NCBI GenBank assembly: GCA_963755915.1
Contig: CAVWLP010000003.1
Span: 768,001-832,000, forward strand
DNA: 64,000 nt
Origin: an uncultured Phycisphaerales bacterium
Lineage (GTDB): Bacteria > Planctomycetota > Phycisphaerae > Tepidisphaerales > Tepidisphaeraceae
Reading direction: 5' to 3'
Shown here: positions 18,205 to 39,404 of the stretch, in pieces
How the letters are laid out: each line of letters begins with the position of its first letter
How positions within the stretch are numbered: position 1 is the first letter of the stretch
Translations under genes and position numbers: made by a program
Notes under the pieces: model-generated
What the model saw: the letters and a program-made list of their open reading frames with translations, nothing else
Database searches by the model: none
Told to the model about the DNA's origin: nothing

Positions 18205-18283
18205 AAAATTTGAAGGCAAGCGCCTATGGCGCATTTTCTCCCCTCCGGAAGACACCGTGCAGAAATGCCGGTGTCTTCTTTTT
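18205..18283 (+). ncRNA. candidate small RNA / structured motif, copy 1, ending in an intrinsic terminator
   Basis: Upstream TTGATT..TAAGAT promoter-like boxes (18166-18195); hairpin GCGCC-TAT-GGCGC; CTCCCCTCC; stem GAAGACACCG/CGGTGTCTTC plus T5; homologous to 34823-34918 and 38072-38175. Confidence 0.6.
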
Positions 18284-18419
18284 ATTCCTCCTGCATAATC
18301 TCCCAAGCCTACCCTAAACGGATTCTTGAGCCTTTTATTTCCGAAATATGTGGCAGCGTTTGATTCGATTTCTCCCCCATTCGCGCAGCCTCACATCTGG
18401 ATGCTATAAGGTGCAATCC

Positions 18420-18789
18420 ATGAAACTTCGCTCATCATCAATCGAAAAAGCTGGATATGTCAAACTGCGACCGAAGGGGAAATCACCAGCGACGATCTCG
18501 CTCGATGCCAAAGAAAACAATCCGCTCGAAGGGGTCCTGGGCACATCCTGGGCTTCCAACAATGTTTTGCTGAACTCTGGCCAGAACTCCGTTCATTGAT
18601 TCCATGCGATCGGCTGGCTGCTGGACAGCGCATCGCAAGATGCAGCAAGCCGGCGGAAAGTTTGTCGTCCATTCGCTCCAGCCGCGGGTCAGCGATCTGC
18701 TGGAGCTGTTGAAGCTGGGAACCGTCCTGAATCTCAAAACCCGACGAAAAATCCGCGCACGATTTCATCACTCGCCGTCTTGAGACTAA
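18420..18789 (+). CDS. STAS-domain anti-sigma factor antagonist (multiple frameshifts)
   Basis: Pieces across frames: NVLLN..LARTPFIDS..AIGWLL..HRKMQQAGGKFVVHSLQPRVSDLLELLKL. Confidence 0.72.
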
Positions 18790-18793
18790 TCAA

Positions 18794-20036
18794 ATGAGCA
18801 CCGGCGCAAAAGCCCCGATGATTGATGTCCAGAAGCTTCCCGTCGAGCAGGCGGTCGCCAAGCTGCTTGCCTATGCCATCATGCTTCCCGCCAGCGATAT
18901 TTTTTTCGCGGCCGATGAATCCAACGTCGTCGTCAGCGTCCGGCACCTGGGAATCGTCAATCCGATCGCAATCGTTCCGTGGAAACTGGGCCGGCGATTC
19001 GTTTCGCACGTCAAGGCTCTTGCCGGGATGGACCTGGCGGAGAAACGCCTGCCCGCAGGATGGCCGCTGGCTCTATTGCGACGAAGCGGGCCACGTCGTC
19101 GATCTGCGCGTGAACATGGTGCCGACGATGCTTCGGCGAAGACATGGCCCTGCGGATCCTCAGCCGCAACACCCGGCTCTACAAAATCGAGGAACTGGGG
19201 CTGGTCAAGATCCCAGTTCGATGAGTTGGTAAGACATGCTCGGCACGCCCGGCGGCCTGATCCTTTTCACCGGCCCCACCGGCTCGGGAAAAACGGCGAC
19301 GCTTTACTCGGCCCTGATGCAGCTCAACGACGGGCGGCGGAAAATCAACACCATTGAAGACCCGATCGAGCACGCCATCGACGGCATCCGTCAATCGCAG
19401 ATCAATACCGCAGATCGATCTCGGATTCTCGACCCTGCTGCGCAATATTCTTCGCCAATCGCCGGATGTGATCATGGTGGGGGAAATTCGCGATCAGCGA
19501 AACCGCCGAGACCGCCGTCCGGGCCGCCAACAGCGGGCATATGGTGCTGGCCACGATCCACTCGCCGATCGCGGCCGGGGCGGTGCAATCGATGCGCAGG
19601 CCTCGGCGTTCATCCCCATTTCCTGGCGACATCGCTGCTGGGCATCATCTCCCAGCGGCTCGTCCGAACGCTCTGCCCTCAGTGCAAGCAATCCTTCGAC
19701 CTGTCGATGGCACCCCACACGTTTGACGACGTGCGCCCCTGGCTCGCCGCCGATGAGGGATCAAAGCTGTTCGCCCCCAAGGGGTGCGCCGCCTGCCAGA
19801 TGCTGGGCTACGCGGGGCGCACCGGCGTCTTCGAAATCCTTCGCATCAACCGCAAGCTGCGCGATCTGATTTCCGACGCCCGCCCGACGCGCGAAATCCG
19901 CCAGGCCGCCGCCGCCGACAAGATGCTGGAATTCCGCCAGTCGGCAATGCTCAAGGTCGCGCAGGGGCTGACCAGCACCGAAGAAGTGGTTCGAGTAATT
20001 CCCTCAGAACATCTTCTCGAAGAGACGCTGGTCTAG
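18794..20036 (+). CDS. GspE/PilB-family secretion/pilus ATPase (multiple frameshifts)
   Basis: PQDGR, GPTGSGKT, TIEDPIE, LRQSPDVIMVGEIRD, QRLVRTLCPQC, GRTGVFE. Confidence 0.9.
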
Positions 20037-20143
20037 CCGGCCCGATCCTCACGTCAAAATTCCGCGCATAAAAAAGCTCCCATCGGCTCGGCACGTTTAG
20101 GCCAATGGGAGCAGGTTGGAGCAACGTTCGTTGCCGCGCGACG

Positions 20144-20724
20144 TTACGCGCAATTGCGCCGGCGGAGCAACAAAGCTCCCGCACTCGCGCCCAGAATGCT
20201 GATGGAAACCGGTTCGGGAACGACCGGCGTCACGTTGAATTCAAATCCTGCGTCGGTTTCGGGAAAACCTGCATAAACGAAGGCAGTTGTCTGATCGTAG
20301 ATCGAGCCGAGCGGGCCCATTCCCGCGCAGAGATCTGCGCGAGGGTCTCAGTGCTGTCGAAGGAGAAGTTGTTGGTTGCCCCGGCGGCGAGCTGATCGCC
20401 CGAGCCGCCGTTGTTGTAGTATTCGATGGCATATCCGTCCCCGGTGAAAGCGGGTCCGGTAACGGGGTCAAGCCAGCCCGTGGGGGCGGTGATGCTGGTG
20501 GGGGAGACGTTCATGAAATCGTAGCCGGGGATCCAGGAGAACCAGAACGTACCAATAGAGGTTGAACTGGTGTTCTTAAGGGCGATGTTGTACTGAAAGT
20601 TTCCACCGCCCAGGGATGTCGCCGAGATCGTCGCCGACGCGGTTTCCGCCGCCGAGGCCGAGCCAACGAGGCCGGCCGCTATCAAAACGCTGCAAACACC
20701 TGCCATTTTCTTCAGTTGCGTCAT
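20144..20724 (-). CDS. PEP-CTERM protein (frameshift ~20320)
   Basis: Signal peptide, GGAGG RBS; VVPEPVSISILGASAGALLLRRR tail in a shifted frame. Confidence 0.85.
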
Positions 20725-20877
20725 GTAAGACCTCCGTTGTGAGAGGTAACTTCGGCGGGAGGGGCTTTATTCCAATTGCGGAAAATTTTTGAACCCCTGT
20801 CGGAATCGGGAATAGAGGCTGCGCAAATTGAGTTGATGCTGGCGGAGCAACAGAAACCTTTTACGCGGAGGAGTCAA

Positions 20878-21546
20878 ATGCGTAGTTTCTGGCGCTCCCA
20901 AACGGGTGTTTTTTCGGTTTTATGTGCGGTCGGATTGGCGGGAATCGGGGCAAATTGCTGGGCCGCGGTCATCTGGAATCAAACCAGCAACGGGCCGCTG
21001 TCAGAGCTTCCCGCATCGCCGACGTCCTTTACCCTGTCAGCCGGGACAAATTCGATCATCGCCACGGAGGGGGGAGGCAGCGGGGAAAGCGGAACCAACC
21101 AGAATTGGGTGAACATTAACATTCCCACCGGGTTGCAGTTGAGCAACCTCGTGCTGGCGTCGTATGTTTCCACCGATCCGCAGGGGTTTATCGGTGTGGC
21201 GTCAGGTACGACGTTCGCCGGTGGCGAGGGGGCCGTCAATACCGAGAGCTCCTACCTCGGCTATTCGCACTACGGAACGGCGGCGAGCAATAACGGCCAA
21301 CCGGCGGTAAACCTGGTTGGGGATGATTTGCTGCCGATCATGGGGAATAACGTGGTAGATGCGCCGGGTTCTACGGGATTCACCCCGCCGCTGCCGAGCG
21401 GGAGTTATACCTTTCTGATTCAGCAACTGGGCGCCACGACGAATTACCAGTTCGATTTTGACGTGACGTCCGTGCCGGAGCCAGGAAGCATCTGTCTCGC
21501 GGTTGGCGGGACCCTGGTCGGGCTGTTAAGACGCCGCCGCCGGTGA
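20878..21546 (+). CDS. PEP-CTERM protein
   Basis: GGAGGAG RBS; signal peptide; VPEPGSICLAVGGTLVGLLRRRR. Confidence 0.9.
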   Translation: MRSFWRSQTGVFSVLCAVGLAGIGANCWAAVIWNQTSNGPLSELPASPTSFTLSAGTNSIIATEGGGSGESGTNQNWVNINIPTGLQLSNLVLASYVSTDPQGFIGVASGTTFAGGEGAVNTESSYLGYSHYGTAASNNGQPAVNLVGDDLLPIMGNNVVDAPGSTGFTPPLPSGSYTFLIQQLGATTNYQFDFDVTSVPEPGSICLAVGGTLVGLLRRRRR

Positions 21547-21598
21547 GCGGTCGCGGCAGGTTCATTTTCGGCGTGGGAATGCCTACCATTAGCCGAAC

Positions 21599-24388
21599 GT
21601 GGCAGACGAGCGCAAGACCTTCTTTATCATCGACGGGCACGCCCAGATTTTCCGGGCCTACTTCGCCCCGTTTCGCGATCTCTCCAGCCCCACCGGCGAG
21701 CCAACCAAGGCCACCTACGTTTTCATCCAATGGCTGCTCAACCTGGTTGAGAACCGCAAGCCCAATTACCTGGCGATGGTCGCCGATGCCGGCGATGAGA
21801 CTGTTTTTCGCAAGGAAATCTCCCCGGAATACAAAGCCCATCGCGAGCCCCCGCCCGAAGACTTTTTTCCGCAGGAACAGCGGATTCTCAAAGTAGTGGG
21901 GGACCTGGGCATTCCGATCTTTTCCAAAGGTGGATTTGAGGCGGATGATCTGATCGCCACCATGGTCCATCGCCTGCGCGATCAGAATTTCGATACCGTC
22001 ATCGTTTCCAAGGACAAAGACCTTCGCCAGCTTCTGGATTCCTCCACCCGCCTCTACGACGTGCAGGGCGATTCATTTCTCGACGCCGACCGCCTCAAGG
22101 CCGAGCTGGGCTATGCGCCGTCACAGGCGATCGAAGTGCAGACCCTCATGGGCGACACCGTCGACAACGTCCAGGGGATTCCCGGCGTCGGCGAAAAAAC
22201 AGCCGTCAAACTCATCACCACCTACGGCAGCATCGAGGGAATTCTTCAGAACGTCGAAAAACTAACACCCAAAATGCGTGAGAATTTTGAGAAATATTCC
22301 GATCGACTGCCGATCGCGCGCAACTGGTGACCCTGAAAAACGATGTGGAATTTGATTTCGATCCCCAGCGGTGCCGCTTTGAGGGCCTCAACATTGCCGC
22401 CCTGAAACCGCATCTTCAGTCGTTGGGCTTTACGACGCTTTTAAAACGACTCGGCGCGGATGAAGCGATGCCTGTCCCCAGGGTCGTCGCGCCAATCAAG
22501 GAGGATGAGGGTCTATTCGGATCGATGTCCGCGCCGGCGGAGGATTCCGCCCCGGTCAGCAACCCCGAGACCTGTGCCGATTGCGATTATCACCTGGTGA
22601 ACACCCCAGAATTGTTCGAGCAATTCCTGGTCGAGCTGAAAAAGCAGAAGCGCTTTGCCTTCGACACCGAAACCGATGCCCTGGGCGCGATGGCTTCTTC
22701 CGTCGTCGGGATGAGCTTCAGTTGGCAGCCGCGCACGGGGTGGTACGTTGCCGTCGATGGCCCCACAGGCCAGCCGTTCCTCGATCGCGCTCAAGCGGTC
22801 GCGAAGCTCAAGCCGATCCTCGAAAACCCGAAAATCAAAAAAGTCGGCCATAACCTCAAGTACGACATCCTCGCCATGCGCCAATACGGCGTTGAGGTGC
22901 AGGGTGTTCAGCTCGACTCCATGATCGCCGCGTTCGTCCTCGATTCCAGCCGGATGCAATATGGCATCGACCGGCTCGCGATGGACTACCTGAACATCCG
23001 CAAAGTTCCCACCAGCGATTTGATCGGCAAGGGGGCAAAGCAAATCTCCATGCGGGTGGTCGATCTCAATCGCATCGCCGCCTACGCCTCGGAAGATGCC
23101 GATGTCGCCCTCCGCCTCGTCGATCTGCTCAGCGAGCGACTGGAAAAAATCCCCGAGCTGAAAAAATTATGCGCTGAAGTCGAAACCCCGCTCATCGACG
23201 TTCTGGTTGAAATGGAAGCCAACGGCGTCGGCATCGACCCGGCCGTTCTCAAGGAGCAAAGCGACGTCCTGGCGGTGCGAATCCACGACCTGCGCGAAAA
23301 AATCTTCAAGTCGGCCGGCTGCGAATTCAATCCCGATTCCCCTAAGCAATTGCAGGATGTCCTCTTTAACCGCCTGTGTCTGGGCACCGTGAAAAAGACC
23401 AAGACCGGCTATAGCACCGACGTGGAAGTGCTCGAAAAACTGGCCGAAAAGCACGAAATACCCCGGCTGATTCTCGACTACCGCAGCCTGGTCAAGCTGA
23501 AAAACACCTATCTCGATAACCTCACCGATTTCCTCAACCCGCGCACCGGGCGGATTCACGCCAGCTTCAACCAGATCGGCGCCGGCACCGGCCGGCTGAG
23601 CTGCAGCGATCCGAATCTCCAGAATATCCCCATCCGCACCGACGAAGGCCGCCGGATTCGCCTCGCGTTTGTGCCCGGCGATCCGAAGAAAAACGTCCTG
23701 CTCACCGCCGACTACAGCCAGATCGAGCTGCGCATCCTCGCCCACTTCACGCGCGAGCCGGCCCTGCTTCGCGCCTTCGAAGCCGATGAAGACATTCACC
23801 GCGCCGTCGCCGCCGAGGTCTTCGGCGTCTCCCTGGAAAACGTCTCGCGCGACCAGCGCGCCCAGGCCAAGATCATCAACTTCGGCATCGTCTACGGCGT
23901 CAGCGCCTACGGCCTCGCCCGTCGGATCGACAACCTCACCGTCCCCTCCGCCCAGAAACTGATCGACGATTACAACCGCCGCTTCCCCGCCATCCAGAAA
24001 TTCCTCGACCAATGCGTCATGCAAGCCCAGAGTTTCGGTTTCGTGGAAACCATCCTCGGCCGCCGCCGGCCAATTCCAGAAATCAAAAGCAGCGTGCTGG
24101 CACTCCGTAATGCCGGCGAGCGCACCGCCATCAACAGCGTCGTCCAGGGCTCCGCGGCCGATCTCATCAAAGTCGCGATGAATAACATTCACCGGCGGAT
24201 CAAAGCAGAGGGACGCCCAGTCGAAAATGCTCATGCAGGTGCACGATGAACTGGTCTTCGAAACGCCTGAATCGGCGGTTGAATCTGAAGCGGAGATGGT
24301 CCGGCAGGAAATGACCACGGCGATGAAACTCGCGGCACCGCTGAAAGTCGAAGTTGGGTGGGGGAAGAATTGGCAGGAGGTGAAATGA
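21599..24388 (+). CDS. polA: DNA polymerase I (frameshifts ~22320 and ~24220)
   Basis: 5'-3' exonuclease (EADD, GIPGVGEKTA), FDTET 3'-5' exonuclease, DYSQIELR, AKIINFGIVYG, QVHDEL. Confidence 0.97.
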
Positions 24389-24433
24389 GATTTGAAACTG
24401 CTCTACTGCAATCCTCCCGCGATCCCCTTCTTA

Positions 24434-24473
24434 TCCCCTCCCCCGGTACTCCAGGGGAGGGTTAGGGTGGGGG
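24434..24473 (+). repeat. 40-nt palindromic extragenic repeat (CCCTCCCC..GGGGAGGG family), copy 1
   Basis: Hairpin plus GGGTGGGGG tail; near-identical copy at 46317-46356. Confidence 0.8.
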
Positions 24474-24551
24474 CCGACTCGGAATTAAGCACGCGAAGAT
24501 CGCAGACATTTGGTAAATCGCCGGGCTCTTTTTTGATATAATTCCCTCGAT

Positions 24552-25022
24552 ATGTCTCAGCCGTCAGACCAGATCGAACTCGACCAAGCCACTACTGGCT
24601 TCCAGACGGCCGAGGACCCCCGCCCCAAAATCGAAGAGCCGCCCCCCGTTCGACTGCTTTCGGTCGACGATTGTTATCTCTGGTCCCCCGCCGGACTCGA
24701 GCCCCAGCTCGACCAGTTTTACGCCGGCCTGCTCAGATTTCAGCGTGAGGAAACACCGGCCAGTGACGGCGACCACGAGCTCGTCTACCGCACCGAAAAC
24801 TTCCGCCTCAGGATCGAGGTCCTCGAGCGCCCGATCAACCGCGATGATTTCCGCCCCCTCGGCGTGATCGTTCCCTCCCTGGCCGATCTGGGCCAGCGCC
24901 TCGCGGATGCAAAAATCGAATATGAACACCAGCGCGGTCTGCTCGCCGGCCAGGAGAATTTCCTCCTCACCGATCCCGCCGGCAATCCCGTGATCGTCGG
25001 CGAATTCCACGTTATGATCTGA
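24552..25022 (+). CDS. VOC/glyoxalase-like protein
   Basis: FYAGLLRF...FLLTDPAGNPV. Confidence 0.75.
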   Translation: MSQPSDQIELDQATTGFQTAEDPRPKIEEPPPVRLLSVDDCYLWSPAGLEPQLDQFYAGLLRFQREETPASDGDHELVYRTENFRLRIEVLERPINRDDFRPLGVIVPSLADLGQRLADAKIEYEHQRGLLAGQENFLLTDPAGNPVIVGEFHVMI

Positions 25023-25029
25023 ATCCCAA

Positions 25030-25638
25030 GTGTTCCACGGCAAACCCGTCATCGGAATCACCGGCGGCATCGGCAGCGGCAAAAGCACCGTCGCCCAGAT
25101 GTTCGGCGAGTTCCATTGCCTTGTCATCAGCTCCGACCAGCAGGTGAACCAAGCCTACCGCGACCCGGCCATCATTCAGCAGCTCCGCTTCTGGTGGGGC
25201 GATGCAATCGTCCGCCCGGATGGGCAGGTTGACCGCGCCCGCATCGCCGACATCATTTTCAGCGACCCCGGTCAACGCCTTAAGCTCGAAGGTCTGCTGC
25301 ACCCCAAAGTTGAACAGTTGCGCCAAGGGCTGATGCTGGGGGCAGCCGATGATCCGCAAGTCCCTGCCATTATTTGGGATACGCCGCTGCTTTTTGAGAC
25401 TGGCCTTTACCGCCAGTGCGATGCTATTGTCTTTGTGGAAGCGCCGCTCCCCCAGCGCCTTCACCGGGTCCGCCAGACCAGGGGCTGGACTCAGGATGAA
25501 TTAACTCGAAGAGAAAATTCGCAGTGGCCCCTAGACAAGAAGCGAGAAATATCCGATTATATTGTTGATAACACTGCCGATGCGGAGTTTGTCCGCGGTC
25601 AAGTCAGAGAAGTGCTTTTCCGAATTATCTCGAATTGA
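25030..25638 (+). CDS. coaE: dephospho-CoA kinase
   Basis: IGITGGIGSGKSTVA, LHPKV, DTPLLFE. Confidence 0.95.
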   Translation: MFHGKPVIGITGGIGSGKSTVAQMFGEFHCLVISSDQQVNQAYRDPAIIQQLRFWWGDAIVRPDGQVDRARIADIIFSDPGQRLKLEGLLHPKVEQLRQGLMLGAADDPQVPAIIWDTPLLFETGLYRQCDAIVFVEAPLPQRLHRVRQTRGWTQDELTRRENSQWPLDKKREISDYIVDNTADAEFVRGQVREVLFRIISN

Positions 25639-25913
25639 TTCCCGAAGCGGTTCTGACATAAGCTATTTCCGGCAGCTATTTTTCGCCAGTGATATTTGGC
25701 AGTGACATCGGCATGGGGCGGATTCAATCGTTTTGAGTTCAATGGAATGACAACCGTGCGTTAAAGACCTTCGATGGATACGAGGGTATAATCACCTAGT
25801 CCGGGACTAATAACTTCCGCTGAATCTCTCACCTTCCCGACAGCTATTTGGATCGTTCGAGAACACCGGAACAAAGACACTTACAACTTACAGTCACATT
25901 CAGGAGGCCGTTC

Positions 25914-27423
25914 ATGGCAAAGTCTAGCAGCACCCGTTCGCGTCGCAGCGGTGGATCGCATCATTCGTCATCCGCCGACGCCGAGGTGCGCGAACCCAAA
26001 GAAACCGAAGCCACCGCGGTGGCCGACGCTCCCGCCGAAGTTGCGGATGAGCAGCCGCGCAAGACCGAAGAGGCGGAACCGCGCGGCAATGGCCAGCCCG
26101 GCTCCTCCGAAGACGTCGCCAACTTCGACGCCGAAACCAACGCCAAGTACGAGCAGGTCAAGGGCGGCAAGCTTTACATCAAGGACCTCCAGCAGATGGA
26201 CGTGCATAAACTGCACGACATCGCCAAGGAAGAGGGAATCACCGATTACGTCGGCCTCAAGAAGCAGGACCTGATCTTCCAGATCCTCCGCTGCCGCATC
26301 CGCCAGAACGGCCTGATGTACGGCGAAGGCGTCCTGGAAATCCTCCCCGACGGCTTCGGATTCCTCCGCAGCCCCGAATACAACTATCTCCCCTGCCCCG
26401 ACGACATCTACATCAGCCCCAGCCAGATCCGCCGCTTCGGCCTGCGCAACGGCCACGTCGTCCAGGGCCAGATCCGTCCGCCCAAGGAATCCGAACGATA
26501 TTTCGCGCTCCTCCGCGTCGAAGCCATCAACGGCGAAGACCCCGAGCGCATCACCGACACCAGCAATTTCGAAGACCTCACCCCGCTGCATCCCAACCGC
26601 CGGCTCATGCTCGAGACACGATGCCAAAGACCTGAACATGCGCATCGTGGATCTGGTCACGCCGATCGGCAAGGGCCAGCGCATGCTGATCGTCGCCCCG
26701 CCGCGCACCGGCAAAACCGTCCTCCTCCAGAAGATCGCCAATGCGATCACCAAGAATCACCCCGAGGTGGTGCTGATCGTCCTGCTGATCGACGAGCGGC
26801 CCGAAGAAGTCACCGACATGGAGCGCAACACCAAGGCCGAGGTCGTCTCCAGCACCTTCGACGAACCCGCCTCCCGCCACGTGCAGGTGGCCGAAATGGT
26901 CATCGAAAAAGCCAAGCGCTACGTCGAATTCGGCAAGGACGTGGTCATCCTGCTCGACAGCATCACCCGCCTGGCCCGCGCCTACAACACCGAAGTCCCG
27001 CACAGCGGCAAGATCCTCACCGGCGGCGTCGACGCCAACGCCCTGCAGAAGCCCAAGCGCTTCTTCGGCGCCGCCCGCAACATCGAAGAAGGCGGCAGCC
27101 TGACGATCCTGGCCACCGCCCTGATCGACACCGGCAGCAAGATGGACGAAGTGATCTTCGAGGAATTCAAGGGCACCGGCAACGCCGAGCTGCACCTCGA
27201 CCGCCGCCTGGTCGACAAGCGCGTCTATCCCGCCATCGACATCAACTCCAGCGGCACCCGCCGCGAAGAATTGCTGCTCGATGCCAAGGAACTGGAACTG
27301 GTCTATCGCCTCCGCCGCGTCCTGAGCGACATGAGCCCGGTGGAATCCGTCGAACTGCTCAAGGGCCAGCTTGACAAGGTGCCGAGCAATGCGCAGTTCC
27401 TGATGACGATGAATTTGGATTAA
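25914..27423 (+). CDS. rho: transcription termination factor Rho (frameshift ~26620)
   Basis: [51 protein letters not shown]. Confidence 0.97.
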
Positions 27424-27426
27424 GTC

Positions 27427-28095: not shown

Positions 28096-28110
28096 CTACA
28101 ATCAACCATC

Positions 28111-29863: not shown

Positions 29864-29870
29864 GGGTGCT

Positions 29871-29899
29871 TTGACCTGAATTTCCCGCATCAATAGACT
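29871..29899 (+). promoter_or_regulatory. sigma70-type promoter, probably leaderless
   Basis: TTGACC-17 nt-TAGACT, 8 nt before ATG 29908. Confidence 0.65.
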
Positions 29900-29907
29900 G
29901 CGCCCCA

Positions 29908-30654
29908 ATGCCCGGCCTCAGCTTCATCACGCTCCTCGCCTACGACTATCGCTACGCGTTCAATGCAATCCGCTCCTACTACGACATCGCCGACGAGATC
30001 ATCCTCGGCCTCGACTCCGACCGCCTCACCTGGATGCGCCAGCCTTTCCCCATCGACCAGAGCGAACTCCGCGCCTTCATCTCCCAAATCGATTCCCGGA
30101 AAATCATTCGCATTGTCGAGGGAAACTTTCACGCCGCCGATCACCCGATGATCAACGAGACCCAGGAGCGAAACGCGCTCTCCATGCACTGCTCAGAAGA
30201 CAATTGGATCGTCCAAATCGACGCCGACGAACTGCTGTTGAACCCCGCCGATTTCAAGAATTGGATGCTCACCGCCGACTCCAATTCCAACCCATGCGCC
30301 CGCTGGATCGGCGTCTTCAAAATCTTCGGCAACCAGGCCCTGGTCATCGACCCGCCAAACGAAATCAATCCCATCGCCACGCGTCTTCGCGGCCGATACA
30401 CCCGTACCCGCTTCACGTCGCAGCCTGAATCGCTCTCCCCGCTGAACCTTCTTCACTACTCCTGGGGCCGCACGCCCGAAGAGCTCCTCACCAAGCTGCG
30501 GAACTGGGGCCATGCGAAGGATTTCAATGTCGATGCCTTCTTCAACTTCTGGCAATCGGTAATGCTTCAAAACTACCAGCAGTTTCGCAACTTCCACCCC
30601 ATTCAACCAGAACTCTGGCAAAGCCTCCGCCTCGCCACAATTACCCGAAGCTGA
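29908..30654 (+). CDS. GT-A fold glycosyltransferase-like protein
   Basis: ADEII, ERN, WIVQIDADE, LHYSW. Confidence 0.7.
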   Translation: MPGLSFITLLAYDYRYAFNAIRSYYDIADEIILGLDSDRLTWMRQPFPIDQSELRAFISQIDSRKIIRIVEGNFHAADHPMINETQERNALSMHCSEDNWIVQIDADELLLNPADFKNWMLTADSNSNPCARWIGVFKIFGNQALVIDPPNEINPIATRLRGRYTRTRFTSQPESLSPLNLLHYSWGRTPEELLTKLRNWGHAKDFNVDAFFNFWQSVMLQNYQQFRNFHPIQPELWQSLRLATITRS

Positions 30655-30700
30655 AGACCACTATTGGATTTTCGATTGAGATCCAAATTGCAAACCGCGC

Positions 30701-30749
30701 GTTTAGCCGCCCCGCTTGACTTCGGCGAGCTCAGTCGAGCCGCGGGGCG
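30701..30749 (+). repeat. REP-like hairpin with a 24-nt element in its loop (30718-30741)
   Basis: GTTTAGC-CGCCCCGC-TT-[GACTTCGGCGAGCTCAGTCGAGCC]-GCGGGGCG. Confidence 0.85.
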
Positions 30750-30775
30750 TTTCTTCGATCACCCCACAAATCGCT

Positions 30776-31678
30776 CTATTCCCCACTCCCCGTCGGTGGA
30801 GTCGTCCCCTCCGGCTCTTCCTCTTCCACCGTTATCGACTTCAATATATCTTCCGCCGCCGTCTGCCGTCCGATCGCCGCTTTCAGGTTGCTCGTCTTCA
30901 CCCGCGGCTCTCTCTTCTCCTTCACCTTGTTCACCGCCATCTCAATTGGAAGATCGTCCGGAATATAAAGAATCCGCCGGCAGCTCGGACAGAAAACCAG
31001 CTCATCCCGGCTATGCAATTTGTTGTAAACGTCGGTGACCAGGTCCATGTTGCAGACCGAGCAGGCATATTCCTCCCGCCGCCGATCCGGCTTCGTCAGG
31101 GCACTAAGGGCCTCACCCTCAAATCGGTCCCCCAGCCGGTTAAACTCTTCGACCGCCTTCGCCGGAACCGCCGCCGCCGCGGCTTCCCTCGCCGGACGCA
31201 ACGACTCAATCTCCGCCTGCAGTTCCTTAACCCGCCCGTCGATCTCCCCGCGCATCGCCTCCAGCTTGGTGTTCTCCGCAGCGCTGACCTCGGCCAATTC
31301 TTTGACTTCCTTCTGAAACTTCTCCACCCCTTCCATCACCTTCAGCAGCTCTTCCTCGGATTTCCCCTTGTCCACCTTTTCCGTATTGATTTCGACGAGG
31401 AACGCCTGATATTCGCGGTTGGTCTTGGCGTTCTGCTGCTGCGCCCGCAGCCGCTCGATTTTCGCATCCCGCGTTTTCAGGTCCAGGTCAAGCTCGGCAG
31501 ACTTCGCCTGCTGCTCCTTGAGGTTTGCCTGCCCCAGCCGCAGCCGCTCCGACAGATCCGCGACCTTCCGTTCCTGGATGCGGACGTTCTTGCTCACCGC
31601 GTTCAGCCGGCCCTGCGCTTCCCGTAGTTTCTGATCCGCGCGGTACAGGGCAACCAGTGCGACGTTAATTGGACCCAT
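30776..31678 (-). CDS. coiled-coil plus C4 zinc-ribbon protein (DUF164/HP0958-like)
   Basis: Long coiled coil, TNREYQA, CSVC...FCPSCRRILY. Confidence 0.88.
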   Translation of the reverse strand: MGPINVALVALYRADQKLREAQGRLNAVSKNVRIQERKVADLSERLRLGQANLKEQQAKSAELDLDLKTRDAKIERLRAQQQNAKTNREYQAFLVEINTEKVDKGKSEEELLKVMEGVEKFQKEVKELAEVSAAENTKLEAMRGEIDGRVKELQAEIESLRPAREAAAAAVPAKAVEEFNRLGDRFEGEALSALTKPDRRREEYACSVCNMDLVTDVYNKLHSRDELVFCPSCRRILYIPDDLPIEMAVNKVKEKREPRVKTSNLKAAIGRQTAAEDILKSITVEEEEPEGTTPPTGSGE

Positions 31679-31913
31679 AAGGCGATTACCTCTAACGACT
31701 CTAGGCCACATTATGGCGAGAGAGCGGCGATTGCAAAGGGGTCAACAGCAAATCGCCCAACCCGCCAACCACCTTTTGCCCCAACTCCGCCGCATAACTC
31801 CCGAATTTTCGCTACCCTTAGCATCGAATTCAACATTCCACTCTTAAGGCACTGCAACACCAATATCTCCTGAATTCTCTCAGCGATCTCTGCGGTGAAC
31901 TAAGCCTATTTCG

Positions 31914-32939
31914 CTAAGGATTCACAAAACACCCCTGCGCATCCACCGGCCCATCCAGCGTTCCAATCTCAATCAATTGCTCCTGCAAATCCTTCCACCG
32001 ATCCAACGTCATCGTCCCCAGCCCCTGTGCCTTGGTGAGATCGTTTTCAATCAGCGGCTTCTGCGCCGCCGCCGCCTCCCCAAACGTCTGCAAATCCATG
32101 TCCTGGTTCAGCCCATGCATCACCGAATTCACCGGGTCCGGATTCCCCAGATAATCCTTCCACCCCTCCCGGCAAGCCGCCGCCATCGCCTTCACTTCCT
32201 GCGGGTGCGATCGCCACAGCTCCCCTTTGCAGATCAGCAATGTCGCATAAGGATTAAACCCCTCATCCGCGATCAAAAACACCTGCGGATCGCCCCCCTG
32301 GTGCCGCGCCAATATCGGCTCGCTCGTCACATAACACTGCTGCGAATAATCCTTGCTCGCCATAAACTGTGCGATGCCCCCATCATAATTCGCCACCTTC
32401 ACCCTCACCGGCGCGAACCGCTTCTCCAGCAGCGTCAGCCACGCGTTCGGCTCGGCCAGCAGATACCCGTCGCTGTTAAACACATCCGCGATCGAAGTAA
32501 ACCCGCGCGACTCATGCACCATGATCCCCTGCGGAAACGTCTGATACACCGCAAAAATGCCGATCACATCCGCATTCTGCCGGCGGGCGATCAGTACCTG
32601 GTCGGAGGTCGACGTCGCGAATTCCGTCTTTCCCGTCGCCACGAGCTGCCACGTATCCGCCCCTTCCCCGGCCGGCGTGATCGTCACATTCAACCCGTGC
32701 TTGGCAAAAGCCCCATCCTGGCTCGCCGCGTAAAACCCCCCAAACTCCGGCTCCGGTTTCCAGTCGAGCGTCAACTGCACCGCCGTCGCACTGGGAGGCG
32801 TCGCGCTGGGCCGCGTCGCGCTCGACGCGTTTGCATTTGGCCCCGGCGCCGATGAGTCACTCGACGGCGCACTGCTTTTCGCGCACCCGCCGATCAGCAA
32901 CCCGCAGAAAACCACGCCCACCGTCAATCGCCAGATCAT
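31914..32939 (-). CDS. NMT1/THI5-like ABC substrate-binding lipoprotein
   Basis: Lipobox IGGC; LDWKPEPEFGGFYAA. Confidence 0.88.
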   Translation of the reverse strand: MIWRLTVGVVFCGLLIGGCAKSSAPSSDSSAPGPNANASSATRPSATPPSATAVQLTLDWKPEPEFGGFYAASQDGAFAKHGLNVTITPAGEGADTWQLVATGKTEFATSTSDQVLIARRQNADVIGIFAVYQTFPQGIMVHESRGFTSIADVFNSDGYLLAEPNAWLTLLEKRFAPVRVKVANYDGGIAQFMASKDYSQQCYVTSEPILARHQGGDPQVFLIADEGFNPYATLLICKGELWRSHPQEVKAMAAACREGWKDYLGNPDPVNSVMHGLNQDMDLQTFGEAAAAQKPLIENDLTKAQGLGTMTLDRWKDLQEQLIEIGTLDGPVDAQGCFVNP

Positions 32940-32994
32940 TCTCAGCCTTTCCGTCTACCGCACCGCAGTTTATCACGTCGATCGCCAGCGAATT

Positions 32995-33022
32995 GTTTAG
33001 CCGCGACCCGAAGGGAAGCGCG
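32995..33022 (+). repeat. REP-like element (TTAGCCGCGACCCGAAGGGRAGCGCG), copy 1
   Basis: 27/28 identical to 43357-43384. Confidence 0.85.
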
Positions 33023-33066
33023 TCTTACGTTCGCACTCCCATACGCGCCACACGATTCGCAACTGT

Positions 33067-33852
33067 TCATTCATCCAGCTCCGAAGCATGCCAATGGCGA
33101 AGCAGCAGTTTAGCCGCCGCATTTATCGCCGCAAACATCGCCAGCCCCAGCAGCGACGCAATCAGCACCGCCGCGAAAACCAAATCCGTCCGTCCCTGCT
33201 TTTTCGCCGAAACGATCCTCACCCCCAGCCCCTCCCCCGGCCCAAACAGCCCCACCAGAAATTCCCCCACCACCGTCCCAATCACCGCCAGCCCCGCCGC
33301 CACCCGCAGCCCCGTAAAAATGCTCGGCAGGGCGGATGGCAGCTTCAATTTCCATAGCCGCGCCCACCTCCCCGCCCCATACAGCCGAAACAAATCCTCC
33401 AGCGCAGGATCGGTCGACATCATCCCCGCCAGCGTATTGGCGATCACCGGAAACACCGAAACGATAAACGCCGACAGCGCCACCGCCCCCAGCCCCGGCC
33501 CGCACCAGATCATCAGCAGCGGCGCGATCGCCACGATCGGCACCGTCTGAAAAAAAACTGTGTACGGATAAATCGCCCGCCGAACCAGCGGCCACGCCGA
33601 CAAAATCATCCCCGCCCCAACCCCCAAAACCCCGCTCGCGAAAAATCCCATCAGCGCCGCCTCCGTCGTCGTCCAAAGCGACGCCGCCAAATCCCCCCGG
33701 CGCAATATCATCACCCTCGCCACCGCCCCCGGCGTCGGCAGCAAAAATGGCTCGTTCAATGCACTCGCCCCAACATGCAGCGCAATCACCGCGGCGATAA
33801 ACACCACCACCGGCGGCCAAATCGCGCCGAAAATCGATCCCGTTCCCTTCAA
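33067..33852 (-). CDS. NitT/TauT-family ABC permease
   Basis: QTVPIVAIAPL, LPSALPSIFTGLR, GTVVGEF. Confidence 0.92.
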   Translation of the reverse strand: MKGTGSIFGAIWPPVVVFIAAVIALHVGASALNEPFLLPTPGAVARVMILRRGDLAASLWTTTEAALMGFFASGVLGVGAGMILSAWPLVRRAIYPYTVFFQTVPIVAIAPLLMIWCGPGLGAVALSAFIVSVFPVIANTLAGMMSTDPALEDLFRLYGAGRWARLWKLKLPSALPSIFTGLRVAAGLAVIGTVVGEFLVGLFGPGEGLGVRIVSAKKQGRTDLVFAAVLIASLLGLAMFAAINAAAKLLLRHWHASELDE

Positions 33853-34598
33853 GCCTTCCCCCCAGATTCCCCTTTCGCCAGCGCTTCATAAATCTTCCGC
33901 GTAATCCCCCCGAATTCCCCTGACGACCGCACCCCCGCCTCCCGCTTCTCCCCCAGCCCAATCTCAATATCCGCCGCAATCCGCGCCGGCCGGCTCGTCA
34001 GCACCACCGCACGATTCGCCAGAAACGTCGCCTCCGCCGTCGAGTGCGTGACGAAAATCACCGTCATCCGGTGCCGCACCCAAAGATCCCGAAGCTGCTC
34101 ATCCAGCCGCTGCCGCGTGATCTCATCCAGCGCCGCGAACGGCTCATCCAAAAGCAAAATATCCGGCCGCGTCACCAGTGCCCGCGCCAGCGAAACCCGC
34201 ATCTTCATCCCCCCCGAAAGCTGATTCGGAAATCTCTCCAGCGCCTCCTCCAGCCCCACCTGCCCCAGCGCCTCCCGCGCCGACCCAATTCTTTCCGCCT
34301 TCCCCACCCCCATCAATTCCAGCGGCAGCGCCGCATTCCCCACCACGTTCCTCCACGGCAGCAGATGCGCATCCTGAAAAACATAAGCAATCTTCCCCGC
34401 CCCCTTCTCCACGGCCCCATGACTCGCCCGCTCCAGCCCCGCGATAATTCTCAGCAGCGTAGACTTCCCACACCCCGACGGCCCCAGCACCGCCACAAAT
34501 TCCCCATCCCCAATCCCCAGCGACAAATCCTCTATCGCCACCACCCCGTTCTCAAAAACCTTCCGCAAATGATCAATTCGCATCGCCCCGGCGATCAT
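33849..34598 (-). CDS. NitT/TauT-family ABC ATP-binding protein
   Basis: GPSGCGKST, LSGGMKMR, LLDEPFAALD. Confidence 0.94.
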   Translation of the reverse strand: MIAGAMRIDHLRKVFENGVVAIEDLSLGIGDGEFVAVLGPSGCGKSTLLRIIAGLERASHGAVEKGAGKIAYVFQDAHLLPWRNVVGNAALPLELMGVGKAERIGSAREALGQVGLEEALERFPNQLSGGMKMRVSLARALVTRPDILLLDEPFAALDEITRQRLDEQLRDLWVRHRMTVIFVTHSTAEATFLANRAVVLTSRPARIAADIEIGLGEKREAGVRSSGEFGGITRKIYEALAKGESGGKA

Positions 34599-34601
34599 AT
34601 C

Positions 34602-34627
34602 GTGTAGCCGCCGAGCTTGCTCGGCGC
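34602..34627 (+). repeat. GTAG-type REP hairpin with empty loop
   Basis: GTGTAGC-CGCCGAGC-TT-GCTCGGCG. Confidence 0.8.
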
Positions 34628-34800
34628 TCTCCGCACTTTTTCCCCTGTCTTTCCCTGAGCTCGAAACTCCTCAGCGCCTGTCACGGGGCGCGCCAAAACC
34701 AGCCAGGGCGGGGCGCTTCAAAACCGGCCAATGTGCTGACGTATTCTATACCGCATCCGTTCTATCCGACGCAACTGTTCCTTGAGTTATTGGTCCCCGT

Positions 34801-35691
34801 TCACGCCGTCTGGCCGGCGGATACCCCCACATCAGAAGACAACGGCGGCTCTGTCACGGTGTCTTCCGGGGGGGAGCACCCTTCATCGCCGGCGGTACTC
34901 CGCCGTCCTTTTGGATTTGTCTTTTCCGGTGTCCCGGATTGGCCTGCCGTGAGCGAAGTCGAATGGCCCCCATGCCGAAGGCGGTAGCTCTTGCCGGTGA
35001 TGTTGATGATCGTGGCGTGCTGCAGGAACCGATCCAGAATGGCCGTGGCCGCCGGCACGTCGCCGATCAGCTTGGCCCAGTCCTCCAGTGGACGGTTGCT
35101 GGTCATCATCGTCGAGCGGTTCTCGTGCCGGCGCATGACGATCTCCAGCAGGCATTCGCCGCTGCGCCGCGGAAGCTGCTTCATTCCCATGTCGTCGATG
35201 ATAAGCAGATCAGGCTTGAGATACCGGGCCAGCGTCTTGTCCTGGGCTCCCAGATCCTCGTCGCCTAAAAAGTCGCGGGCCAGGTCGAAGATGGATCGGT
35301 ACAGGACCACCAAGCCGCTCTTGATCGCCTGGTGTCCGATGGCCTGGGCCAAAAACGATTTGCCCACGCCGGGCGGACCCAGCAAGAGCACGTCACGTTT
35401 GTCACGAATGAACTGGCCGGCGGCCAGATCGTGAATCTGTTTGCGTTTGATGGAGGTGTTGAAGGAGAAGTCGAACTCGTCGAGGTTTTTGGTGTCGCGG
35501 AACATCGCCGCCTTGACGCGCCGGCCGATCTGCCGGCTGGATCGGACGTTCAGTTCATCCTGAAGGATCAGTTCCAAAAACTCACTGTGGTCGAGCCGAT
35601 TGCCGGCCGCCTCGCTCAGGCGAACTTCAAGGCTGCTCGCCAGACCTGAAAGCCGAAGTTGCTTGAGCGTCTGCATCAACGAAGGTCTCAT
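34801..35691 (-). CDS. istB: IS21 helper ATPase
   Basis: GPPGVGKS, LLIIDDMG, TSNR, AILDRFL, GKSYRL. Confidence 0.96.
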   Translation of the reverse strand: MRPSLMQTLKQLRLSGLASSLEVRLSEAAGNRLDHSEFLELILQDELNVRSSRQIGRRVKAAMFRDTKNLDEFDFSFNTSIKRKQIHDLAAGQFIRDKRDVLLLGPPGVGKSFLAQAIGHQAIKSGLVVLYRSIFDLARDFLGDEDLGAQDKTLARYLKPDLLIIDDMGMKQLPRRSGECLLEIVMRRHENRSTMMTSNRPLEDWAKLIGDVPAATAILDRFLQHATIINITGKSYRLRHGGHSTSLTAGQSGTPEKTNPKGRRSTAGDEGCSPPEDTVTEPPLSSDVGVSAGQTA

Positions 35692-37373
35692 GGGGTGGAC
35701 TCCCTTCGGCTCTGCTCAGGGCAGGCCTGTAAAGGTTGTGCGGCAGGCAAAGCCTCCGCTTGGGTGATTGCGTCGCGTACGAACTGTCCGTAATCGGCCA
35801 GTCCGCGGATGATTGGATGTTCCTGAACAAACTCGAAGTGTTGTTGAACCGGCGCGCCGTTTTGGTGTTCGATGAGCTGCCGCAGGGAGCGCAGGTGATA
35901 CGCGCCATGCCCCAGAGCAATCTCGCAGGCTCGTTCCACGGCCGGTCGCGGCTGCTGATTGGCCAGCGACAGCAGCCCCATCAACACGCGCACGCCTTCG
36001 ATGCCGCGATGCTGAAGCATTGACTGCGCCCACTGCGTGGCGTGCGGCCCGATGCATTCGATCCGCTGGAGAAGCCAGGTCGTTCCACGCTCGATGCCGC
36101 TGATCTTCTCCGGCAGGATATGGGCGTCTTGCGTCGAGAACCTGCCCGGCGGACGCTGCGCGTGCAGAGCGATCGCACGCATCTTCTGATCGAACAGCCG
36201 GACCGTGCGCCCGTCCCACCGCGCCCAGACCCGCTGGCCCAAAAACTCCGGCGGGACCGAATAGTACGCCCCCTTGATCTCCACGTGCCCGTCGCGGTGA
36301 ACACTGCGCAACGCCTCGGTGAAAAGATCGAATCGCACCGGCGGCAGAGCCAACAGTGCCGGCTTCTCTACCTGCTCGAAGACTTCCTTCACCTGCCGCC
36401 GCGTCGTGCCGTGGATGCGCGTGTCGGCCACGCTCTTCTCCCACGTCAGCAGATGCGCGTTCTGATCCGAGAGCGAGGCGAATTGCCGGCCTTTGAGAGC
36501 ATTGCTCTTCACATAGCCGATGCCCCGCTCGATCTTCCCCTTGTGCCGCGGCGTGTACGGCTTGGTGGGCAGAATGGCGATTCCATAATGTTCGGCGAAC
36601 GACCGGACCTTGGGACACAACTCCGCCTCGAACCAGTCCGCCCGCGTCACCGCCGCGCGAAGATTGTCGATCACCAGCGCTGACGGCATCCCGCCGAAGT
36701 GCGTAAAGGCATTTTCCAGACAACGCAGAAAATCATCGGTCGTCTGCCGCTCCACCGCCTCGGCGTACCCCTTGCGGCTGTGGCTCAGCACAATGCGGAA
36801 GACCCAGGTTGCTTTGCGTTTGCCGTCAGGACCGACCAGGGGCGCACCCCGGCCGAAGTCCACCTGCCCTCGGCTCCCGGCTCGCATTCCATCCGGCGCA
36901 CGCTGTAATAGCTGCCGGCATAGCCGTGATCGCTGGAGATGTCTTGATAAATCCGCTGGGCCGTCAGCCCGGCTTCCAACTTCTGAACAATGACCTCACG
37001 CCAGGGCGATGCCGTACTGACCGACCCGATGGGCGCGCCGGATAACCCGGTGGGCGCGCTCTCCGAGCCGCCTGCGGCGAGCACCGTCGAGCCGCCTGCG
37101 GCGAGCACCGTCGAGCCGCCTGCGGCGAGCACCGTCGAGCCGCCTGCGGCGAGCACCGTCGAGCCGCCTGCGGCGAGCACCGTCGAGCCGAGGGGCGCGC
37201 TGGCCGGTTTTGAATCCGATCCGGGCACCGCAGGATCGCCGCCCGACAACCGGATGTGGCGTCCAACGGTCTCCCGGTGAACGCCGAGTTGGCGGGCGAT
37301 GTTCCGATTGGACCAGCCGCTGCGCAAGTGCCAAAATTGCTTGTACTTCCGCCATCTTGAGTTGATTGGCCAT
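35688..37373 (-). CDS. istA: IS21 transposase (frameshifts ~37325 and ~36875; 24-nt repeat insertions)
   Basis: N-terminal HTH (IARQLGVHRETV), QVDFG, DNL, KGKIER, RIHGTT. Confidence 0.92.
37070..37189 (+). repeat. 5 perfect tandem copies of the 24-mer GCCTGCGGCGAGCACCGTCGAGCC
   Basis: Direct reading; encodes (GSTVLAAG)5 in istA. Confidence 0.97.
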
Positions 37374-37572
37374 CCCACCATTGGCTTGCGGCAACCGCCG
37401 AAAGCCAAGGTCGATAACCCAATCTCCTGTGCCTCAAAATGGCCGGTTTTGGCGCGCCCTCAATTGGCCGGTTTTGCGCCCCATGACACAGCGCCCCGCC
37501 GCCGAAAGCACCGGAGGTGCTTGGGCGGTACTCCGCGAAACGTGGGCCGGAGGCCGTCCCTAACTTCTCCCC

Positions 37573-37622
37573 GTGTAGCCGCCGTGCTTGACTTCGGTGA
37601 GCTGTCTCGAACCGCACGGCGC
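37573..37622 (+). repeat. GTAG-type REP with a 24-nt element in its loop (37590-37613)
   Basis: GTGTAGC-CGCCGTGC-TT-[GACTTCGGTGAGCTGTCTCGAACC]-GCACGGCG. Confidence 0.85.
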
Positions 37623-37859
37623 TTTCCCGCCAAATACCTCAAGGCCGCCCCCGACCGTCACAAGGCCAGCCAAGTGCCACCGCGGCGGAACCGCGTTTTA
37701 TATTCGAGTCAACGCCTCTTCTCGTCCCCCAAACCATAACCGAAAATACTCTTCCTTCTTTTTACGATGTAAATCCGACCGCTTCGCTCCAATAAATGTG
37801 GGGAATCCCACTCATAAATTCTTCCTCTTTCTTGGCATCTTGGCGTCTTCTATGAGCCG

Positions 37860-38060
37860 AGCCTTGTCAAGGGGCGTTGATCGCTCATGCGGTCGATTGG
37901 GTGAGCCTTCTATTCAGTGCTCTCGCCTGGCGGCGGGCCTATTCAACTGTACAAATGGCCAGCCCTATTCTTAGCGGCAAGCTTTGAAGCTTAAGACGCC
38001 AACCGGGGTCTGGCCTTGCTCATTCAACCTGCACGAACGCGTCAATTCCACTTCACTTCA
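37860..38060 (-). ncRNA. putative bridge/seek RNA of the IS110 element
   Basis: Internal loop with guides matching both halves of the insertion site (37993-38002 and 37970-37977); RNA ends uncertain. Confidence 0.8.
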
Positions 38061-38175
38061 ACTCTACTCAATCCCCTGCACAGAAGACAACGGCTTTCTG
38101 ACACGGTGTCTTCCGGAGGGGAGATACTCCATCGCCTGTACCGACTTGTCGGGACAGTCATCGCCTTTTCGATTT

Positions 38176-39219: not shown

Positions 39220-39404
39220 TGCCGAGTCCTTTCTCAAAAAAGACGTTTGAGCGACCTACGCGGTACGCTCGTTCATACTTGGGGCATTTTGACCCCGTTC
39301 ACGTCCCGAGAAAGGCTCGGCTTCATAGTTTCTTGGCGGTTATAAGATTTTTAACCGCCAAGACGCCAAGAGCGCAAGAAAGAAGCAGATAAAAAGAAAT
39401 TTAT

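Follow-up and report, generated by a model that had tools for sequence, protein, structure and literature searches.

Mobile elements encode regulatory or guide RNAs of their own: the bridge/seek RNA of IS110 and the omega RNAs of TnpB/IscB are transposon-encoded guide RNAs that lie at the ends of their elements and are family-specific partners of the element's own recombinase or nuclease. DapZ of Salmonella, a small RNA (sRNA) embedded in a 3' untranslated region (UTR), copies the seed of the core sRNA GcvB, and trans-acting sRNAs with C-rich seeds include RsaE/RoxS of the Firmicutes and the alpha-proteobacterial ar14 'cuckoo' family with its CCUCCUCCC motifs. Repeated hairpins of the REP/BIME and miniature inverted-repeat transposable element (MITE) types stabilise upstream mRNA, and CsrA sponges display GGA motifs in hairpin loops. 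Here we analyse an RNA motif in a stretch of 64,000 nucleotides (nt) from an uncultured Phycisphaerales bacterium of the family Tepidisphaeraceae (positions 768,001 to 832,000 of contig CAVWLP010000003.1, assembly GCA_963755915.1; hereafter the window), where it occurs at a stand-alone intergenic locus and in two insertion sequences (IS), one of the IS21 and one of the IS110 family. ISPpu9, another IS110-family element, encodes Ssr9, which is described as a sense sRNA downstream of tnp, about 180 nt long, with its own promoter and orphan chromosomal copies, and specific to ISPpu9 (PMC8450116).

The stand-alone locus belongs to a new host sRNA family that extends across the class Phycisphaerae and has no match in Rfam 15, and the IS-borne copies, which we call the module, derive from it. 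Like DapZ in relation to GcvB, the module is a seed-bearing, sRNA-like domain at the 3' end of a coding transcript and resembles a separately encoded core sRNA; unlike DapZ, its carriers are the transposases of three IS families, its homology extends over the whole length rather than being a convergent seed, it has no terminator tail and its seed is predicted to be paired in cis. The module shares with Ssr9 a sense RNA region 3' of an IS110-family transposase, presence or absence by copy and the existence of stand-alone copies (PMC8450116). It differs in that IS21 and IS3 elements have it too, its source is a host gene found across the class, it shows no separate promoter, and in IS110 it lies ahead of the conserved 3' non-coding RNA region instead of taking that region's place. 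By analogy, the module would work most like DapZ/GcvB and Ssr9, its closest working analogues, and is a member of neither.

With bridge and omega RNAs the module shares the arrangement of a structured non-coding RNA beside the transposase inside the element; however, it spans three unrelated families, is absent in the closest IS110 relatives and has a host gene as its ancestor. An assignment as IS110 bridge/seek RNA was rejected, as the module also occurs in IS21, IS3 and the host and is absent in 19 of the 23 IS110 loci with enough downstream sequence. Like REP/BIME and MITE hairpins, it is a repeated, hairpin-forming sequence at gene 3' ends, but it multiplies only as an IS passenger, its core is identical to part of a single-copy sRNA gene and its conservation is one-sided, lying in a run of C residues (the C-run). 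Nor does it resemble a CsrB/RsmZ-type CsrA sponge, since its one to three GGA or GGA-like motifs lie in linkers or at a stem base, or an sRNA derived from a 3' UTR together with the mRNA terminator: the location at the 3' end of an open reading frame (ORF) fits, but no U-run follows the hairpin and 135–245 nt of IS sequence lie beyond it.

The host sRNA, like RsaE/RoxS and ar14, is a short RNA with its own promoter, an intrinsic terminator and a conserved C-rich strand fit for G-rich sites similar to the Shine-Dalgarno (SD) sequence, and from its sequence it looks like a base-pairing regulator with an anti-SD-like seed. Unlike them, it has no counterpart in Rfam, its C-run lies in the linker 5' of the terminator rather than in hairpin loops, and no Hfq was found in its host; this comparison was made by description, and by sequence through Rfam only. 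In literature searches at the abstract level, neither this RNA nor the capture of a core sRNA by several IS families was found described, and no sRNA work on Phycisphaerae came up.

We thus describe an sRNA family not reported before, whose C-rich strand is near-invariant and of which a cultured carrier, Fontivita pretiosa, makes direct tests possible, and a natural experiment in RNA capture, in which IS21, IS110 and IS3 elements repeatedly gained a host RNA in the same orientation and position and with consistent remodelling. These results suggest that mobile elements exploit a piece of host RNA regulation, and the module is a new variant of mobile-element RNA biology with a proposed mechanism. 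If the module affects the fate of transposase mRNA or host regulation, IS elements would plug into lineage-specific host RNA biology, and the module may partly account for IS bursts like that in this genome, where 49 IS copies bear it.

The stand-alone locus and its relatives

A first description of the window, made from its letters (the sequence-only reading), had placed three copies of one architecture at 18205-18283 (+), 34823-34918 (-) and 38072-38175 (-), and the sequence bears out all three sites and strands. The 15-mer CCGGAAGACACCGTG matches exactly at 18245-18259 (+), 34855-34869 (-) and 38102-38116 (-), where 0.16 matches are expected by chance; at least three matches occurred in none of 100 shuffles. 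Each copy has the proposed A-rich stretch with AAGG, a copy-specific hairpin, the C-run and a GAAGACACC..GTCTTC hairpin, and both IS copies do have in common GCGATG and a 3' G-run that can pair with the C-run. As for a core shared by all copies, the C-run and the 5' arm of the terminator stem are truly common, while the remainder of the motif is not. The copies fold more stably than shuffled sequences (z-scores of -4.5 for the stand-alone, -3.2 for the IS21 and -2.1 for the IS110 copy). In the predicted folds, the C-run of the stand-alone copy is unpaired and its second hairpin is followed by U5, whereas both IS copies have a paired C-run and G-run and no U-run.

The motif had been thought to lie outside known families, in agreement with the absence of any match to Rfam 15 covariance models at gathering thresholds across the whole window. 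Searches in E-value mode returned noise only: the best RNA match in 18120-18340, to Esr41, reached 13.5 bits where the gathering score is 102, and nothing relevant was found in 37780-39480.

The stand-alone locus comprises the following features:

18166..18195 (+): putative sRNA promoter, with -35 box TTGATT at 18166-18171 and, at 18185-18195, TGgTATAAGAT with the candidate -10 boxes TATAAG and TAAGAT
18201..18284 (+): stand-alone sRNA of about 83 nt, ends predicted; 109 bits with covariance model R1
18220-18232 (+): hairpin 1 of the fold, after an A-rich 5' end
18233-18246 (+): single strand AUUUUCUCCCCUCC, unpaired in the fold
18247-18279 (+): terminator hairpin, followed by a U-run at 18279-18283

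At up to three mismatches, a 22-nt core pattern was found in 22 of the 24 other Tepidisphaeraceae genomes, mostly as a single copy. The 23 family copies, one of them a row from an unpublished genome (G014) on which no claim rests, have in common TTGA(C/T) and TAnnnT boxes at promoter spacing, a start near GG(U/C)AA and a short GC hairpin, followed in the 3' part by the invariant GGCGCAUUUUCUCCCCUCCGGAAGACACCG, a variable loop, a complementary arm and a U-run; the only ATG of the sRNA, in the loop of hairpin 1, is not conserved. In the alignment of these copies, pairing in the 14-pair terminator helix amounts to 98.4%, with two-sided changes at five pairs, and none of 500 shuffles reached its covariation score.

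The covariance model built from the 23 copies (R1) gave full-length matches in 61 of 151 Phycisphaerae genomes: 17/20 in the home family (f1), 14/14 in f13, 8/8 in f4, 6/6 in f18, and 5/7, 2/2 and 4/20 in others. Homologues and covariation elsewhere, for which the sequence-only reading had proposed a check, thus exist, as determined by this covariance-model search and by alignment shuffles. None of the 23 family rows, nor any of the 21 from other families of Phycisphaerae, departs from the string YUUUYCCCCUCCGG. At class level the C-rich strand is nearly constant, with one or two variable Y/C positions, while the 5' part varies freely and the terminator stem is exchanged wholesale between families, always with its pairing kept (GAAGACACCG in the Tepidisphaeraceae, GAAAACAUCA, GAAAGCACCG and GUAGGCGAAG). 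Since the stem varies by family but the C-run is constant, the functional part conserved in this old sRNA is the C-run. Furthermore, all IS copies bear exactly the Tepidisphaeraceae version of the stem, and the transfer therefore went from the host sRNA to the IS elements, not in reverse. The stand-alone locus had been regarded as merely another copy of the motif. This was wrong, as it is the ancestral, class-wide host sRNA gene and the source of the IS copies; the three copies in the window are not equivalent, one being a conserved host gene and two being parts of IS elements with 31 and 9 copies.

A motif scan of all prokaryotes, with one genome per species, returned at least 83 stretches. 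Among the matches listed, nearly all come from Tepidisphaeraceae, Tepidisphaerales or Phycisphaerae assemblies, by record title; 63 of the 84 motif instances are of the sRNA type, with promoter and U-tail; and F. pretiosa carries the sRNA gene at locus L121. For 36 of the 63 distinct upstream sequences from these matches, TTGA[CT]-N17-20-TAnnnT is found within 75 nt, a view that cuts off several of those that do not fit, and a T-run directly follows the stem in 55 of the 63 loci. Although a simple consensus promoter scanner did not call the sRNA promoter in the window, the -35 and -10 boxes recur at a fixed distance in relatives and the same boxes appear in the sequence alignments, which argues for a promoter; the covarying stem with its U-run argues for an intrinsic terminator. 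We consider it about as plausible as the whole explanation set out below, that is, a little short of an even chance for both jointly, that this locus is a real trans-acting sRNA gene of Phycisphaerae.

Contigs from four soil, peat or rhizosphere metatranscriptome runs (four studies) cover the sRNA region of relatives, the covered part of the window being 18071-18283, and sixteen RNA-labelled runs hold part of the sRNA stretch; such contigs carry no transcript-end information, may include DNA carry-over and are uninformative in uncovered parts and at their ends, so that they indicate expression of the sRNA weakly. Upstream of the sRNA lies a gene for a PlsC-like acyltransferase in 38 of 64 loci, with pyruvate/2-oxoacid:ferredoxin oxidoreductase genes in this genus, and downstream a convergent HIT-family gene in about 20 loci; synteny around the sRNA loci gave no functional lead.

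Three observations concern the locus itself and its surroundings. In two genomes (L058 in G004, L067 in G012), a second copy of the sRNA type lies about 46 nt past the stop codon of a hybrid histidine kinase (HATPase_c, Response_reg, Hpt); it keeps the seed, terminator and U-run, has a different 5' part and is a host 3' UTR version of the sRNA. In the window, hairpin 1 with the adjoining AUUUUCU (18220-18240) was scored as terminator-like by a simple scanner, which gives the sRNA two consecutive terminator-like hairpins; the first could be an attenuator or the source of a short form. Further downstream, at 18794-20036, two overlapping ORFs of 187 and 266 amino acids both match the type II/IV secretion ATPase family T2SSE and appear to be a single gene interrupted by a frame change or by misassembly.

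Insertion sequences carrying the module

The two module-bearing elements of the window were delimited by self-BLAST and annotated with Pfam:

34678..37489 (-): IS21a (IS21 family); 32 loci in the genome, 31 with the motif
35688-36887 (-): IS21a istA, with rve and Mu-transpos_C_2 domains
34801-35691 (-): IS21a istB, with an IstB_IS21 domain
34815..34918 (-): IS21-borne module, within the 3' tail of the istB ORF; 113.5 bits with model R2; hairpin 1 at 34905-34890, linker GCGAUGAAGGG, C-run at 34875-34868, hairpin 2, G-run at 34828-34824, no U-tail
about 37828..39345 (-): IS110 element; nine copies in the genome, 9/9 with the motif
38176-39237 (-): IS110 recombinase, with DEDD_Tnp_IS110 and Transposase_20 domains
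38063..38167 (-): IS110-borne module, beginning within a few bases of the recombinase stop; 69.3 bits with model R2; hairpin 1 CUGU.CCGAC / GUCGG.ACAG, linker GCGAUGGAG, C-run, hairpin 2, G-run GGGG

The placement of the two IS copies was read correctly from the start. The IstB_IS21 domain ends at residue 240 of 296 and the motif lies beyond it, in the tail of the ORF; the other copy begins directly past the stop of the ORF at 38176-39237 (-) that encodes the two IS110 domains; and both are sense relative to the transposase gene. The suggestion of two IS families, by contrast, fell short: IS3 is a third, found in another genome, and there were repeated gains.

The host genome is a 6.63-Mb assembly in three contigs, 81% complete. 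Of CCGGAAGACACCGTG it holds 42 exact copies (31 in IS21a, 9 in IS110, 1 in IS21b and the stand-alone one). The 22-nt core, at three or fewer mismatches, has 51 copies, against none for a reversed control pattern: one is stand-alone, 41 lie in three IS21 lineages and nine in the IS110 element. The third lineage, IS21c, is about 2.7 kb long, has nine identical copies and was picked up once three mismatches were allowed. IS21a and IS21b share 78.7% identity over 2238 nt, yet their 22-nt core differs by a single change. Self-comparison of the genome gave 29 repeat families of at least 600 bp, 13 of them with at least three loci, and the motif occurs in three of these 13 (in 31/32, 9/9 and 9/9 loci). 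Copies of each IS have identical flanks around the motif. This, together with a position internal to the IS elements and 135–245 nt from their ends, led us to reject a MITE, which had been named as a possible refutation, for the IS-borne copies.

In the scan of all prokaryotes, the 21 non-sRNA instances among the matches listed are IS21, IS110-family and IS3-family elements, a 150-nt repeat and one single copy (L077), which is unexplained. Two of the loci (L072, L118) represent further IS110-family subtypes of the module. The IS3-family carrier (HTH_21, rve, rve_3), of about 1.35 kb, is present in five identical copies in one other assembly. The module lies 177 nt from the IS end in IS21a and 245 nt from it in IS110; in IS3 it starts 184 nt from the right end. 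In all IS-borne copies it is sense and at the end of the last ORF, and the stop codon lies before, inside or after the motif depending on the lineage; as the reading frame over the motif also differs between IS lineages, a protein-coding constraint is excluded. The 150-nt repeat (F-type) of one assembly consists of the module and sequence like the right end of IS110, lies 3' of unrelated host genes and has a variable 5' edge; its IS110-like 3' end suggests a fragment of IS110.

To avoid the bias of motif searches, we surveyed 141 family genomes with protein queries (IS110 recombinase and IstB). The recombinase had matches in 22 genomes, and among 24 loci whose downstream sequence was examined, four have the module directly after the ORF (100%, 90%, 46% and 32% identity to the query), 19 are without it and one was too short. 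The nearest relatives of the window element (73% and 68% protein identity) have no module, and the other two positive IS110 lineages have sister elements with the same conserved downstream RNA-like region but without the module. These module-less sisters of three IS110 lineages indicate at least three separate gains in IS110. IstB had matches in 28 genomes; the module is present in four of nine close relatives (68–88% identity), one of which (L194) is split by a 33-nt insertion, absent in the other five, and present in none of 14 distant IstB loci (26–37% identity). The IS3 element of the host genome and the module-bearing IS3 share 29% identity and are too distant to serve as a pair with and without the module.

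Two IS21 relatives without the standard module (L191 in G139, L192 in G022) have at the same place another C-run (UCUCCCCUCC or UCUCCCCCCC) and an unrelated hairpin, CAGCGG..CCGCUG in L192, which may be an older or independently derived version. In IS110, the 3' non-coding region of the window element (38175-37828) contains repeated GAATAG-type motifs and a TTGACA near the end, and family IS110 elements keep such a GAATAG/GAATGAG-type region with TTGACA near the element end 3' of the module site (37828-38060; L155, L157, L159-L168). This region could be a 3'-encoded bridge/seek RNA together with the -35 box of a junction promoter.

Structure of the IS-borne module

The IS copies share features that the host gene lacks: A(A/G)GGAC immediately before hairpin 1, a loop that is usually AGUA, a linker of the type G(A/G)UGARGG where the host gene has AUUUU, a mismatched 3' arm of hairpin 2, no U-run, and downstream a purine run (GGGGG, GGGGA, GAGGG, GGGAG or GGAG) that pairs with the C-run. 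These shared features point to a single original capture, after which the module spread from one IS family to another. In minimum-energy folds of 20 lineages, hairpin 1 formed in 17 and a helix of C-run and G-run enclosing hairpin 2 in 14, while the upper stem of hairpin 2 is irregular in many IS lineages.

In a model-fitted alignment of 25 IS-type rows, which leans towards the model structure, each of the six pairs of hairpin 1 shows two-sided changes, with 93.4% of cells paired; the whole structure has 24 compensatory cells, a number reached by none of 500 shuffles and far above slid controls. An unfitted MAFFT alignment, in which hairpin 1 is misaligned, was 83.6% paired, and three of 500 shuffles were as high. 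The C-run is fixed except for one Y position, and its partner strand varies. A neutral passenger, or a hairpin that serves stability only, would hardly show a fixed C-run beside a fully rewritten hairpin 1. The proposal of the sequence-only reading that mobile elements carry a functional RNA module is backed by the abundant homologues and by compensatory changes in both hairpins. That the module is kept by selection as a structured RNA part of the transposase transcript belongs to the joint explanation that follows, and we would rate it, with that explanation, at nearly even chances.

Competing explanations

The best explanation, in our estimate almost as likely to hold as to fail, is that a class-wide host sRNA was captured by IS elements, remodelled and kept as a seed-masked 3' RNA module. 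A Tepidisphaeraceae sRNA would have been captured without its promoter and passed between IS21, IS110 and IS3, each time in sense and where the transposase ORF ends. During remodelling, the U-tail would have been lost and hairpin 1 kept by compensatory changes, and a downstream purine 'anti-seed' would have come to pair with the unchanged C-run, so that the seed would be locked in a long irregular hairpin. Transcribed within the transposase mRNA, the module could serve as an RNA 3'-end domain with the sequence-specific recognition of the host sRNA, by way of the pairing partners or the binding protein that this sRNA itself uses. It would probably yield a stable sRNA-like 3' fragment of the transposase mRNA, the seed of which may stay masked until processing or strand displacement and might then affect host targets. 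We have moderate confidence in an RNA-level role of the module and in the retention of the host sRNA's recognition element in masked form. It is unlikely, in our view, that three IS families each took up the host sRNA as a seed-masked 'pro-sRNA' by which an active IS rewires or senses the host sRNA regulon. IS transcription would there be followed by release of the seed through processing or strand displacement, or the anti-seed would be offered as a sponge; if true, RNA mimicry of this kind would constitute a new class of interaction between IS and host.

Several results weigh against capture and retention for an RNA function. IS elements can proliferate without the module: it is missing from an IS with a DDE_Tnp_1 transposase, which at 41 loci of about 1.57 kb is the commonest in the genome, and another genome contains 14 matches to an IS110 relative that lacks it. 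As the pattern scans of family genomes and of all prokaryotes required the core sequence, the invariance of the core is overstated, the upper stem varies in the protein-based survey (L187, L190), and the fitted alignment favours its own model. No protein partner was found, nor any target of the sRNA seed in duplex scans of IS transcripts or in scans near genome start codons, the latter giving many short matches and no clear candidate. Complementarity of the seed to the full IS21a and IS110 transcripts was no better than that of shuffled seeds (best duplexes of -13.9 and -17.2 kcal/mol, respectively, versus shuffled means of -16.8 and -15.8), and repression of the IS elements by the host sRNA found no support here. 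A masked seed would be inactive in trans unless unmasked. Finally, the RNA evidence consists of contigs from relatives, some of which run into the flanks and none of which gives transcript ends.

IS21, IS110 and IS3 are generally described as moving via junction or circle intermediates in which read-through matters, and the module might be a pure cis-acting stabiliser, insulator or terminator: a strong hairpin borrowed from the host terminator, with a C-run that has no role of its own, which protects the transposase mRNA from 3' exonucleases or stops read-through of the IS right end. In each of the three IS families it sits where the last ORF ends and short of the IS end, and it forms a long stable hairpin; both suit such a role. 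But the terminator U-tail is absent from every IS copy, the upper stem of hairpin 2 is irregular in many lineages, and a plain hairpin should covary as hairpin 1 does, while here one strand, the C-run, is fixed and its partner varies; we regard this account as unlikely, though with a sizeable chance. A role as protein decoy or recruitment site is quite unlikely. The core and the motifs AGGA, GAAGGG and CCGGAAGA would bind a host RNA-binding protein common to the sRNA, with the IS titrating CsrA or drawing it to the IS mRNA. In this 81%-complete assembly, three matches to the CsrA family were found and neither Hfq nor ProQ, and CsrA, as the sole family of global RNA-binding regulators found, is the decoy candidate. 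The IS type also keeps A(A/G)GGAC immediately before hairpin 1, a linker with G(A/G)AGG and an invariant CCGGAAGA; GGA-type motifs are few, however, and lie outside hairpin loops, and the part that is invariant across the class is the C-run, which has no GGA motif.

The two readings least compatible with the data give the RNA no function at all or place it in DNA or protein. In the former, the module is carried neutrally through repeated recombination among IS elements and between them and the sRNA gene, as its patchy presence among close IS relatives, the nested IS insertions in this genome and the equal proliferation of IS elements without the module would allow. Against this stand a hairpin 1 fully changed by compensatory substitutions next to an identical core, the single core change between IS21a and IS21b despite their divergence, and the same sense orientation and relative place of all IS copies after at least five gains in three IS families, which makes a functionless passenger very doubtful. 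It is highly improbable that the motif is a MITE, a target for recombination or insertion, or the coding sequence of a conserved peptide at the C-terminus of IstB. The repeat of about 150 nt that carries the module 3' of unrelated host genes in one genome, and the istB ORF of IS21a that reads through the motif, speak for this group, but that repeat has the appearance of an IS110 fragment, the modules are internal to IS elements and lack terminal inverted repeats of their own, the IS110 module lies past the stop codon and the host copy has a promoter and a terminator. The coding variant was rejected because the frame of the istB tail differs by lineage and the ATG in the sRNA loop is not conserved.

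IS elements and other repeats make up an unusually large share of this genome, and IS insertions are nested in it. The DDE_Tnp_1 element mentioned above is represented, for example, by locus L248 (G000:C1:21650-23248), with 40 further loci. A group II intron with an RVT_1 and GIIM maturase ORF (L249, G000:C2:344883-346946) has 13 copies, none with the motif, which implies that an active reverse transcriptase is or was in the cell.

Within IS21a, a 24-bp tandem repeat (37064-37190, -) in the N-terminal part of istA spans eight codons in frame; the repeat number differs between IS21a copies, and another copy has a frame change within istA. The window copy has no counterpart of a 40-bp stretch near 36893-36898 that most other copies have, so that its istA is N-terminally short. 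The ends of the alignments among IS110 copies vary (37819-37838 and 39345-39403). Between IS21a and IS110, positions 37491-37806 form a dispersed repeat of 250–300 bp, found with 84–92% identity elsewhere (C2:350089, C3:186822, C3:316741); IS110 flank alignments extend by variable lengths, and this repeat may be a preferred IS110 target.

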